A DNA stretch of 64,000 nt, taken from the NCBI GenBank assembly GCA_002293685.1, contig DBDS01000002.1, forward strand, positions 31,742 through 95,741, in the 5' to 3' direction. This document shows, piece by piece, positions 1 to 46,420 of this stretch. The position numbers and the translations under genes were made by a program. The DNA is from Patescibacteria group bacterium UBA926 (lineage in GTDB: Bacteria > Patescibacteriota > Doudnabacteria > UBA920). Below the pieces are notes generated by a model. It was not told the origin of the DNA and made no database searches. It worked only from the letters and a program-made list of their open reading frames with translations. Position 1 is the first letter of the stretch. Each line of letters starts with the position of its first letter.

Positions 1-1127
1 ATCGCCGCCACAGTTTCGCCACCGCCCGCCACCGTATATGCTTTTCGCTTTCCAATTCCACCAATTACTTTAGCTAAAGCCATTGTGCCAGATCGATAGG
101 GTTTTTCCTCAAAATAACCCATAGGTCCATTCCAGCAAACTGTTCCGGCTGTTTGTAAAATTTTGGTATAAGCTAAAATAGTTTTAGGTCCGATGTCGTA
201 TACTTTATCTGTCTGAGATATTTGTGTTAAGTTCTTTGCCACAATCTTGATCCCTGTTCGTTTCTGAGGTGAGTAAACAATTACATCATCGGGAAAAACT
301 AATTTATGTTTTAGATTTAATAATAATTGTTTTGATAACTGGGACCCGGCTTTATCAAGCTGATCACTTCCAACATTATAACCTTTAGCATGTAAAAATA
401 AGTTTGCCAAACCGCCGCCAATCAAAATTTGATCAGCGCGCTTTCCAAGGCTCATTAACGTTTTGGCTTTATCAGAAATTTTTATTCCGCCCATCATTAA
501 CACAAATGGCTTTTTGATTCTTCCAGAAATCAATATATCTAGCGCGGCTATTTCTTTGGAAAGCAATGGACCCGCATAGCTTGGCAAATATTTTGTAATG
601 GCTGAGTTAGAAGCCTCCGCTCTATGAGAAACACTAAACGCATCATTCACATAGACATCACCTAGCTCAGCAAGTTGGCGTGCAAACTTGTCTTGGTTTT
701 TTTCTTCACCTTCATAAAAACGAATGTTCTCGAGCATAACAATATCGGCAGGAGTTTGATGAATCAATTGCTGACGAACAGTGGCATCGGTAAGATCCCC
801 TGTAAACAAAATAAAATGCTTCACTGCGTACTCTGGTAACTTGGCATCAGCTTTAACAAATTTATAGTTCAGTTTTTCTGCTAGTGATTTTGCAATTGGT
901 TCCAGGGATAGCGACTTAACCACTTTCCCTTCCGGTCTTCCTAAATGCGAAATTATCACGAGCTTATTTCCATTTTTTTGAAGTTGCGAGGTGGTAGGTA
1001 AAGCAGCTTGGATTCTGTAATCATCAAGCAGTTTTCCCGACTTATCAATAGACTCATTTAAATCTAAGCGAAGAATTATTCGCTTATTTTTGAGGCTTTT
1101 ATTTGTGGATATCTGCTTTATTGACAA
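1..1127 (-). CDS. pgk: phosphoglycerate kinase. The C-terminus lies beyond the window edge. The start is uncertain: TTG at 1127, or ATG at 1277 which adds a non-PGK-like 50-aa extension.
   Basis: The minus-strand translation has the PGK motifs ISHLGRPEG, ENIRFYEGEEKN, DAFSVSHRA, GGGLANLFL, WNGPMGYFE and GGGETVAA. No in-frame ATG lies near the conserved N-terminus. Confidence 0.85.
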   Translation of the reverse strand, partial: MSIKQISTNKSLKNKRIILRLDLNESIDKSGKLLDDYRIQAALPTTSQLQKNGNKLVIISHLGRPEGKVVKSLSLEPIAKSLAEKLNYKFVKADAKLPEYAVKHFILFTGDLTDATVRQQLIHQTPADIVMLENIRFYEGEEKNQDKFARQLAELGDVYVNDAFSVSHRAEASNSAITKYLPSYAGPLLSKEIAALDILISGRIKKPFVLMMGGIKISDKAKTLMSLGKRADQILIGGGLANLFLHAKGYNVGSDQLDKAGSQLSKQLLLNLKHKLVFPDDVIVYSPQKRTGIKIVAKNLTQISQTDKVYDIGPKTILAYTKILQTAGTVCWNGPMGYFEEKPYRSGTMALAKVIGGIGKRKAYTVAGGGETVAA

Positions 1128-1307
1128 TGTTTCTAAATTATGGTTTAATACAGAGGTCTGAAATTTAGACAAGTCGCGTACCGAAGGAGGTGTTATGGCT
1201 TTTTTTAAATGGATGGCGAATGCCCATGTCGGCGAAGATGCTCTGTTTGTAAGTCCAGGCACAACGATGATAATCATTATCGCAATGCTTGTAACTGGAG
1301 GTGCATT

Positions 1308-1436
1308 ATGGCTAATCGGCTAGATAAGCCGCAAACAACGAGTTGGTTCGAAACTACCTCCCCCAAAACATTCCTGTTCACTCTAGTAGTGTTTGGACTG
1401 GTATTTCTGATCACAATCTTCTACAACATAGCTTAA
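1308..1436 (+). CDS. hypothetical 42-aa single-pass membrane peptide
   Basis: GGAGGTG lies 4 nt upstream of the ATG. The peptide has a hydrophobic C-terminal helix (FLFTLVVFGLVFLITIF). It is followed directly by a hairpin plus T-run. A TTGTAA-N16-GATAAT promoter-like sequence lies upstream. Confidence 0.45.
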   Translation: MANRLDKPQTTSWFETTSPKTFLFTLVVFGLVFLITIFYNIA

Positions 1437-1448
1437 CCTCAAGCCCGA

Positions 1449-1480
1449 CCGAACGCTCCCACGTTCGGTTTTTATTTTTT
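1449..1480 (+). terminator. rho-independent terminator of the small plus-strand ORF
   Basis: Stem ccgaacg / cgttcgg is followed by tttttattttttt on the plus strand. No U-run follows it on the minus strand. Confidence 0.5.
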
Positions 1481-38244: not shown

Positions 38245-38273
38245 TTTGACAAAAAGTGCTATAAATAGTATAA
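38245..38273 (+). promoter_or_regulatory. perfect-consensus sigma70 promoter TTGACA-N17-TATAAT
   Basis: gtTTGACAaaaagtgctataaatagTATAATgtg, about 35 bp from and divergent to the S10 promoter. Confidence 0.7.
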
Positions 38274-38309
38274 TGTGTAAAGTAAATTTCAGTATCTATG
38301 GAGGATATA

Positions 38310-38734
38310 TGTTGAAAAGTATCGTATTTGGAGGCATGAGCAGCCAAGAGTTTGTAATCGTCTACACTATTATGAATTCAAGATGTGTCTTTACACAAGC
38401 TGTGCCGCGCAACAATTGCATTACCATAAATTGGGCCGAAGAAATTATCGGAGAGATTATGGATAACGAAAAGCGTAGATATGACCGATTTTATAACTTA
38501 CTGATTATCAGGAAGCATCGGCCATTCGTACCTGTTCACGAGTCAAGGCCTCATCTGGAGTTTTGCGAAGTGATTAGCAAGCTTGAAGATAAGCCCGATC
38601 ATTCCACTGATTTCAAACACACCCGATTCCCCGATCAACTTCGCGAAGTTTTCAATGGGTTGATACCGAATAACGTGAAGCAGAAATCAAAGATGGTCGC
38701 TTCAGGATTCGGACAAAAGATCCATTCTTGGTAA
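38310..38734 (+). CDS. orphan 141-aa hypothetical protein
   Basis: GGAGG 6 nt upstream of the ATG. Preceded by the consensus promoter and followed by a strong terminator. No recognisable domain. Confidence 0.55.
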
Positions 38735-38767
38735 ATTTCAGGATTTCCTCAACGATAACTAATTAGA

Positions 38768-38793
38768 AGAGCCGCTCCCCGGCTCTTTTTTAT
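38768..38793 (+). terminator. rho-independent terminator
   Basis: agagccg-ctccc-cggctct followed by ttttttatt. Confidence 0.7.
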
Positions 38794-38832
38794 TATCCCA
38801 ACAAAAAACTCCCCAATTTCTGGGGGAGTTTT

Positions 38833-40564: not shown

Positions 40565-40834
40565 ATGCCATACCGAACCTTGAAGGTGCATTGGATTCAA
40601 TATTTAAACGAAGAGAAGGTGTCTGATCTTTATTCATACCACTCTTCGCCAGAAACTTTTGAATTCTTTCGCATGAGATTCCTGAGAGAAAATAGAACCA
40701 AACAATCACCGTACCAATATTCCATTGGTTTGACAGGTTGGGTTCTGGTCTCTGATACTAAGGGCACAGCAATAAAAAATTCCATCTTTGGAATTTGGCA
40801 TGTTGATGACATGGAGGTGAAGCAGTCTGTTTAA
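40565..40834 (+). CDS. orphan 89-aa hypothetical protein
   Basis: AGGGGG 8 nt upstream of the ATG; TTGCCA-N17-(TGc)CACAAT promoter-like sequence; a terminator hairpin overlaps the stop codon. Confidence 0.45.
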   Translation: MPYRTLKVHWIQYLNEEKVSDLYSYHSSPETFEFFRMRFLRENRTKQSPYQYSIGLTGWVLVSDTKGTAIKNSIFGIWHVDDMEVKQSV

Positions 40835-46123: not shown

Positions 46124-46129
46124 GTTAAT

Positions 46130-46158
46130 TTGAATAAATACTAATTTTTAAATATAAT
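46130..46158 (+). promoter_or_regulatory. promoter-like TTGAAT-N17-TATAAT
   Basis: tTTGAATaaatactaatttttaaaTATAATtg, upstream of the 46177 ORF. Confidence 0.5.
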
Positions 46159-46176
46159 TGAATTAAGGAGGTGGAG

Positions 46177-46398
46177 ATGGTACTGGTTAAAGGCAAAATT
46201 CGACAAATGGGCTCTGAGGAATGGGAATCATTCGAAGAAAGTGTCGAACCCAGGATTGATACCAAACCTGAGAACATGCGTAGACAAATGAAAATGCATT
46301 TTCATTTGGTAGATGGCGAGGAGATCGAAATCGAATCGATCATATCTCATGCTGTTATTGCGTTCAGTAATGAACCGCAAACAGAGATTAGCTTTTAG
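46177..46398 (+). CDS. orphan 73-aa acidic hypothetical protein between fusA and rpsG
   Basis: AGGAGG 6 nt upstream of the ATG; own promoter; the stop lies in the loop of a plus-strand-specific terminator. Confidence 0.5.
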   Translation: MVLVKGKIRQMGSEEWESFEESVEPRIDTKPENMRRQMKMHFHLVDGEEIEIESIISHAVIAFSNEPQTEISF

Positions 46399-46420
46399 CT
46401 GGTCTCTTTTTTATTTTCTC
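46384..46420 (+). terminator. rho-independent terminator (plus-strand specific, has U.G pairs)
   Basis: agagattagc-tttta-gctggtctct followed by tttttatttt. Confidence 0.55.

Follow-up and report, generated by a model that had tools for sequence, protein, structure and literature searches.

The spacer between the glycolytic genes gap and pgk, at the left end of a 64-kb stretch of the genome of Patescibacteria group bacterium UBA926 (hereafter the window; the genome, G000 in our genome comparison, comprises 0.9 Mb in 8 contigs), carries two overlapping small open reading frames (sORFs), named sORF-A and sORF-B, on the strand opposite to both genes. We consider it likely that sORF-B constitutes the second half of a compact two-gene antisense operon, and that the two sORFs encode a coupled pair of membrane microproteins which form a new, lineage-specific family and occupy a variable accessory-gene slot. 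An earlier note on this DNA had described a single plus-strand membrane-peptide ORF of 42 amino acids (aa), located antisense between two minus-strand glycolytic genes. This ORF (sORF-B), which is hydrophobic in its C-terminal half, and its location were found as claimed, but the 345-nt spacer contains two plus-strand small genes rather than one, with sORF-A preceding and overlapping sORF-B. The coordinates of all features are given in Table 1.

Overlapping small ORFs and their predicted products

The two sORFs were found to share an identical Shine-Dalgarno (SD) sequence, GGAGGTG, and both open with ATGGCT. The SD of sORF-B, already recognized in the earlier note, lies 4 nt ahead of its ATG and within sORF-A. 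The overlap between the two frames is 16 nt, sORF-B being in the −1 frame relative to sORF-A, and the sORF-A codons that specify its terminal GGALW (GGA GGT GCA TTA TGG) hold both the SD and the ATG of sORF-B. Among the five genomes carrying both sORFs the overlap was 16 nt in four and 13 nt in the fifth, and a GGAGG motif was present 4–13 nt upstream of the sORF-A start in all six genomes that have this frame. Because the initiation signals of sORF-B are embedded in the last codons of sORF-A, translation of the two is probably coupled, so that sORF-B would be translated together with its upstream neighbor.

In AlphaFold structure predictions, each peptide has a single long helix at its C-terminus, spanning residues 21–41 in the sORF-A product and 19–41 in the sORF-B product (predicted local distance difference test, pLDDT, of 93–95 within the latter helix). 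Hydropathy in a 17-residue window was 2.0–3.0 in all members of both groups, which range in length from 27 to 48 aa, and the net charge of the N-terminal part varied from 0 to +3 for sORF-B and from −3 to +2 for sORF-A. The products are thus predicted to be single-pass membrane microproteins with a polar N-terminal part and a C-terminal transmembrane (TM) helix, and the TM helix predicted for the conserved sORF-B by both hydropathy and AlphaFold bears out the earlier proposal of a membrane-peptide gene. Since the TM helix is situated at the extreme C-terminus of peptides of ~40 residues, insertion of both peptides into the cytoplasmic membrane would be post-translational. A length of ~45–50 residues is the lower limit for co-translational targeting by the signal recognition particle (SRP), and post-translational SRP targeting has been described for smaller peptides (PMC12648545).

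Evidence for selection on the encoded peptides

Comparison of sORF-B between two close species (G011 and G021) showed 4, 1, and 13 differences at codon positions 1, 2, and 3, respectively, corresponding to proportions of changed non-synonymous (pN) and synonymous (pS) sites of 0.077 and 0.70. Thirteen changes were synonymous and five non-synonymous, against a neutral expectation of ~4 and 14, while gap gave a pN of 0.012 and a pS of 0.42 for the same pair. Judging from this substitution pattern, purifying selection acts on the peptide encoded by sORF-B. The frame was intact in nine genomes, one glycine of the helix was invariant in all nine members, and an SP motif was common ahead of the helix. 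Conservation in relatives, where a disrupted frame would have spoken against a gene, and a dN/dS-type comparison were among the checks that the earlier note had proposed, and both favored sORF-B. Two strain-level variants (L046 and L047) differed by one codon only and were uninformative for dN/dS.

For sORF-A, the SD-led frame was open over 36–48 codons in six genomes. Given the local base composition, a stop-free frame of 40 codons has a probability of only 0.09–0.13 per genome, and synonymous sites were saturated between the species that carry sORF-A (gap pS ~0.7). In addition, the motif GxAGANLxNK is common to the sORF-A peptides of G024 and G016, despite a different downstream gene in the latter. 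On these comparative grounds, sORF-A and sORF-B are genuine genes maintained by selection. Chance ORFs in a non-coding spacer from which no protein is made would be in line with the ease with which short hydrophobic ORFs arise in AT-rich DNA and with the near absence of relatives in protein databases. Such an origin is nevertheless extremely improbable, given that frames, SDs, and overlap were kept across genomes with saturated synonymous sites, that synonymous changes in sORF-B clearly outnumbered non-synonymous ones, and that a promoter-like site and a terminator bracket exactly the two sORFs.

Promoter-like site, terminator, and probable read-through from gap

The promoter-like site upstream of sORF-A resembles an extended −10 (sigma-70) promoter in its layout. 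Its −35 element matches the consensus at 6 of 6 positions, corresponds in reverse complement to codons 1–2 of pgk, and overlaps the TTG start of that gene. Exact matches to TTGAC-N17–19-TWTAAT numbered only three in the window, this site among them. In a comparison of the promoter layout of 21 cassettes (i.e., the antisense units occupying such spacers), including one from another genus (G049), TTGAC[AT]-N17-hexamer was present in all 21 and TRTG stood in register in 20; the pattern was present in none of nine cassette-free spacers. The transcription start site of the cassette would lie at about position 1156, leaving a leader of ~30–40 nt. The promoter suggested in the earlier note, TTGTAA-N16-GATAAT (1247–1274), could not be upheld: it lies inside sORF-A, matches 9 of 12 positions, and has a counterpart in none of the four closest relatives. 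Matches of this kind occurred six times, compared to 5.1 expected in shuffled sequence.

The hairpin and T-run downstream of sORF-B were confirmed as an intrinsic terminator that is present on the plus strand only. It is the sole terminator-like site in the spacer, the minus strand of which has none, and its T-run is the complement of the last two lysine codons and the stop codon of gap. Hence both ends of the unit sit in coding sequence of the neighbors: the −35 element falls within codons 1 and 2 of pgk, and the U-tract within the final codons of gap. Of the cassettes, 18 were folded, and each had a hairpin and T-run behind the stop codon, with unrelated stem sequences; every cassette in the genus has GGAGG ahead of the start codon of its cargo. 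Folding of the cassette mRNA left the SD of sORF-A free in the centroid structure (whole-transcript z-score −1.7). Transcription would accordingly be expected to run from the promoter-like site through sORF-A and sORF-B to the one-way terminator.

No promoter-like site for pgk was conserved inside the cassette. Given this, and the lack of a terminator-like site on the minus strand, transcription of pgk probably continues to come from gap, passing through the antisense of the cassette. In that case the gap–pgk RNA and the cassette RNA would be complementary over ~300 nt, and an influence of the cassette RNA on pgk expression is possible. The antisense orientation may be what lets a terminator-bearing insert persist within the operon: the insert is probably tolerated because its terminator stops plus-strand transcription only and permits read-through from gap to pgk, while an insert on the same strand would be polar on pgk.

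Table 1. Features of the gap–pgk spacer, its flanking genes, and further antisense units in the window (positions in the 64-kb window).
Feature	Position	Strand	Description	Basis
Promoter-like site	1121–1149	+	−35 TTGACA (1121–1126), N17 with TATG (TRTG; 1139–1142), −10 TTTAAT (1144–1149)	Conserved position
SD of sORF-A	1186–1192	+	GGAGGTG	Sequence
sORF-A	1195–1323	+	42 aa; polar N-terminal part, predicted C-terminal TM helix	Open frame, SD, comparison, AlphaFold
SD of sORF-B	1297–1303	+	GGAGGTG, within sORF-A	Distance to ATG
sORF-B	1308–1436	+	42 aa; basic/polar N-terminal part, SP motif, predicted C-terminal TM helix with invariant Gly	Comparison, AlphaFold
Intrinsic terminator	1447–1480 (hairpin 1447–1470)	+	9-bp stem (5 GC pairs), 6-nt loop, then TTTTTATTTTTT	Folding
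pgk (phosphoglycerate kinase)	3–1127, off the left end of the window	−	Start TTG at 1125–1127	Homologous N-terminus MSIKQISTNK
gap (glyceraldehyde-3-phosphate dehydrogenase)	1472–2503	−		Pfam Gp_dh_N and Gp_dh_C recorded on an identical gene
rpsJ–tuf unit	38246–38795 (ORF 38309–38734)	+	141-aa ORF	Perfect TTGACA-N17-TATAAT (38246–38274), GGAGG, terminator
Unit antisense upstream of tuf	ORF 40565–40834 (unit to 40850)	+	89-aa ORF	SD-like GGGGG, clean terminator
rpsG–fusA unit	46129–46410 (ORF 46177–46398)	+	73-aa acidic ORF	TTGAAT-N17-TATAAT, GGAGG (46167–46171), hairpin and T-run

Distribution and cargo of the cassette

An antisense cassette was present in the gap–pgk spacer of 20 of the 26 genomes of the genus and missing from six. 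Its cargo differed: sORF-A and sORF-B together in five genomes (G000, G024, G020, G023, and G013), sORF-B alone (27–38 aa) in four, sORF-A with a cysteine-rich protein of 78 aa in one (G016, where the cysteine-rich protein comes after sORF-A), the cysteine-rich protein alone in two, and unrelated two-helix proteins of 62–87 aa in eight. Thus sORF-B occurs in nine genomes, always in the gap–pgk spacer, and sORF-A in six. The cysteine-rich proteins (74–78 aa; L021:1768-1992, minus strand; L022:1213-1446, plus strand; L045:1787-2008, minus strand) are basic at the N-terminus, contain a CxxC(C/H) motif, and gave no Pfam match. The order gap then pgk was observed in each of the 30 family loci of the initial set, and in those cassette-free genomes whose spacers were read by eye, pgk starts directly at the gap stop codon or a few nt away.

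In a tree of gap and pgk, the genomes with both sORFs were monophyletic (support 100) and fell in an unresolved group with the clade carrying sORF-B only and with G016, which bears sORF-A. This grouping indicates that both sORFs are older than the clade in which they occur together. The cassette-free genomes were scattered over the tree, indicating repeated loss of the cassette.

The two-helix proteins occupy the same slot in a sister clade, behind the same promoter layout. This raises the question of whether sORF-A and sORF-B could have arisen when a frameshift split a single ancestral membrane protein of the two-helix hairpin type, both parts being kept because they reassemble in the membrane; the −1 frame of sORF-B relative to sORF-A with its short overlap, and a combined length of ~80 aa similar to that of the two-helix proteins, would fit such an origin. 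We nevertheless regard it as very unlikely. No similarity of either peptide to the two-helix proteins was demonstrated, although no profile comparison against sORF-A or sORF-B was made, and the two-helix proteins themselves lack a shared Pfam match and are not demonstrably related to one another. The basic N-terminal part of sORF-B fits a location inside the cell rather than an outside loop, and four genomes have sORF-B alone. A two-helix look-alike elsewhere in the genome under study (C4:55270-55521) had no alignable similarity to two of the two-helix proteins from the slot.

The exchange of cargo behind a constant promoter would also be expected if antisense transcription itself were selected, as in an excludon-like arrangement in which polymerase collision or cleavage of an RNA duplex lowers pgk expression or uncouples it from that of gap, the ORFs being passengers. 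Promoter and terminator are conserved while the cargo changes wholly (sORF-A with sORF-B, sORF-B, sORF-A with the cysteine-rich protein, the latter alone, or a two-helix protein), the promoter is in every case placed directly against the start of the core gene downstream, here as well as in the rpsG–fusA and rpsJ–tuf spacers described below, and the cassette breaks the gap–pgk adjacency seen in cassette-free genomes, with pgk lacking an SD. The purifying selection on sORF-B at the protein level is not accounted for by this explanation, nor is the GGAGG SD placed at the right distance ahead of each cargo, which transcription alone would not need. Furthermore, six genomes manage without a cassette, and strong promoters resemble the consensus anyway, so that conservation of the motif is weak evidence for the promoter as the selected part. 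Taken together, selection on antisense transcription as the sole basis of the cassette appears unlikely. Excludon-type convergent antisense units were first described in Listeria. The cassette resembles them in that the transcript of one strand would be complementary to the operon RNA of the other and could set the relative expression of the neighbors; it differs in being a putative unit of ~330 nt which is filled with SD-led coding sequence and has its own terminator.

The spacer also holds inserts in other genera of the family. Same-strand ORFs of ~125–157 aa with a common motif set (resembling the GxxExxY type by eye) were observed there, and one other genus has a HicA/HicB-like pair (loci L076, L082, L085, L087, L091, and L093, and L077). 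In genus g22 the spacer again contains an antisense gene for a two-helix protein, equipped with its own promoter, SD, and terminator. These varied inserts indicate that the gap–pgk junction is an insertion hotspot across the family.

Searches for related families

Searches with sORF-A and sORF-B gave nothing above threshold in Pfam, NCBIfam, PADLOC, PHROGs, or the PDB sequences (best E-values 0.07–1.7), and homologue searches with the single peptides retrieved only the peptides themselves or strain variants. A profile of sORF-B matched three proteins in 5.8 billion sequences and three in 1.84 billion, and a search of 146 order-level genomes with it recovered just the nine known members from the genus. 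No match to either sORF was found outside the genus among 1.8 billion protein representatives. Based on these family-library and homologue searches, sORF-A and sORF-B appear to represent new microprotein families restricted to the genus. Public annotations contain one of the two sORFs each, sORF-A only in ENA and sORF-B only in JGI, and the latter stretches pgk over sORF-A (482 aa). As a separate observation, the 0.9-Mb genome has ~12 SD-led hydrophobic small ORFs outside long ORFs, and a further pair of SD-led small ORFs, which encode hydrophobic peptides of 43 and 50 aa and overlap by 4 nt, was seen at G000:C8:258458-258738 on the plus strand.

Comparison with known systems

The closest described counterparts are the small membrane proteins of up to 50 aa, such as YohP, YkgR, AcrZ, MgrB, KdpF, and CydX, which likewise have ~30–50 residues and one TM helix, are missed by annotation, are too short for co-translational targeting, and are often lineage-restricted (PMC12648545). 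In contrast to these, sORF-A and sORF-B have no sequence relation to the described families, form two overlapping genes, have no membrane-protein partner alongside, and are located antisense between genes for cytoplasmic glycolytic enzymes in an uncultured host of the candidate phyla radiation (CPR). By their sequence features, they appear to be new lineage-specific members of the class of bacterial small membrane proteins, in an unusual but explicable antisense position.

Some type I toxins, e.g., Fst, carry a charged C-terminal tail, a feature that neither peptide has. Otherwise the two peptides share with type I toxins (Hok, TisB, Fst, TxpA, and BsrG) the small, hydrophobic, single-helix character, the convergent or overlapping arrangement with a probable complementary RNA, and the accessory location. 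A type I toxin-antitoxin-like system would have one or both peptides depolarize the membrane, with the gap-to-pgk read-through RNA acting as antisense repressor and a drop in transcription of the glycolytic operon releasing the peptides. Consistent with this, toxins of type I are usually small membrane proteins (PMC12648545), and a complementary RNA is likely to be made, the cassette being convergent with gap with no terminator on the minus strand; moreover, the HicA/HicB-like pair in the same spacer of another genus indicates that the spot takes addiction-type cargo. However, the RNA-level controls of such systems are not apparent. The mRNAs of type I toxins typically require processing or refolding before they are translated (PMC12648545), whereas the cassette has a short putative leader rather than a long structured one, and a strong SD that is exposed in the centroid fold; combined with the consensus-like −35 element, this SD would mean constitutive expression. 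There is no dedicated antisense RNA gene, and the minus strands of the five cassettes with both sORFs have no promoter-like site in common. In addition, two coupled peptides are encoded instead of one, and the cassette was lost six times in the genus. We therefore judge a toxin-antitoxin function improbable.

A two-peptide bacteriocin locus was considered as well. Class IIb bacteriocins (lactococcin G, plantaricin EF/JK) consist of two co-transcribed small helical peptides that are thought to pair via small-residue motifs in their helices, and the arrangement of sORF-A and sORF-B is similar in encoding two small helical peptides on what would be one transcript. This candidate was rejected: neither peptide has a double-glycine leader, the GG of sORF-A being C-terminal and part of the SD of sORF-B, and the flanks hold only pgk and gap, with no immunity or ABC-exporter gene nearby. 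The predicted topology is that of a signal anchor rather than that of secreted amphipathic peptides.

Proposed function of the peptide pair

We propose that the two peptides act together in the cytoplasmic membrane, serving as small accessory factors or modulators of either a membrane protein or the cell envelope; such a role, rather than that of housekeeping parts, is the most likely one to be inferred from the genes. It is preferred because the pair is dispensable and fast-evolving, with six losses in the genus, and because the cassette lacks both the RNA-level locks of type I toxins and the hallmarks of a bacteriocin locus.

Several observations weigh against the proposal of a translated two-gene operon with this function. 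No neighboring gene points to a partner protein, and the interaction between the two peptides, their membrane location, and the partner are all things we infer. The −10 element TTTAAT matches at five of six positions and is without the canonical A at position 2, and TTGAC-N12-TRTG occurred 22 times genome-wide compared to ~26 times in shuffled sequence, i.e., it was not enriched; consequently, the promoter call depends on the cross-species position of the site and on nothing else. For sORF-A, the signal from the conserved GGxLW end cannot be told apart from that of the sORF-B SD and ATG, and outside this end the peptide evolves fast (pN 0.33–0.59 between species).

Members of the CPR/Patescibacteria have minimal genomes and a host-attached life that depends on the cell surface, and to our knowledge almost nothing is known about small membrane proteins in this group. 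Small membrane proteins are a recognized but poorly charted class, and the pair described here was missed or mis-called by gene callers. The locus also illustrates how a terminator-bearing accessory gene can fit an essential operon: it lies antisense, its terminator is one-way, and its signals share sequence with codons of the neighbors.

Antisense units in other core operons

The earlier note had reported the same architecture at positions 38310, 40565, and 46177. This was found to be partly the case: all three units lie on the plus strand with an SD or SD-like motif and a terminator (Table 1), but none of the ORFs encodes a membrane peptide and their cargo is unrelated to that of the gap–pgk cassette. 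No homologue in the genus was found for the 73-aa ORF between rpsG and fusA or for the 141-aa ORF between rpsJ and tuf. The 89-aa ORF upstream of tuf is 45% identical to counterparts in G024 and G023 (E ~1e-20), with weaker matches in G014 and G015, and gave no family match.

The broader claim, that small opposite-strand genes lie inside core operons, held across the genus. The rpsG–fusA spacer was captured in 23 genomes, eight of which have an antisense cassette with a consensus promoter beside the fusA start, GGAGG, and a terminator beside rpsG. The cargo of these cassettes varies and mostly consists of proteins with two or three hydrophobic stretches. In the rpsJ–tuf spacer of G023 and G016, the promoter given for this unit in Table 1 is retained in its position, with other cargo behind it; in G016 this ORF opens with a hydrophobic segment. 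A rough scan of the whole genome for full antisense cassettes missed known positives, and its result was discarded.

The gap–pgk, rpsG–fusA, and rpsJ–tuf spacers might be viewed as standing antisense expression slots, each with a fixed consensus promoter next to where the downstream core gene begins and a terminator, effective in one direction, next to where the upstream gene ends, within which microprotein genes (mostly for membrane proteins) are born, replaced, and lost in the genus, while transcription of the slot perhaps sets the relative expression of the flanking genes. We hold this generalization to be rather doubtful at present. If it were true, the pair of sORFs described here would represent a momentary state of a general process by which microproteins turn over in streamlined genomes. 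The combination of a conserved promoter and terminator with changing cargo, and the two further core-operon spacers, make for a tractable system in which to follow the birth and turnover of microproteins.

Neighboring genes and adjacent sequence

Nearly all long ORFs of the window are carried by the minus strand, including the two genes that flank the cassette. In a scan with its C-terminus, gap came closest, among named records, to MAGs of Candidatus Doudnabacteria (63–71% identity), in line with a CPR/Patescibacteria genome of that neighborhood. The pgk frame is open upstream of its TTG for 64 codons in this genome, with an ATG at 1275–1277, and is closed within 0–7 codons in the four closest relatives. 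Since the N-terminus MSIKQISTNK is common to the relatives and the upstream frame is closed in the four closest ones, TTG was taken as the start of pgk and the upstream extension as incidental.

On the other side of gap, between fba and gap, a GC-richer stretch (2504–2845) contains a T-loop-like GGTTCGAGTC and a minus-strand ORF of 78 aa. ARAGORN and Rfam (at gathering thresholds) identified no tRNA, tmRNA, or other RNA family in this stretch. The 78-aa ORF was called as a gene in the JGI annotation.

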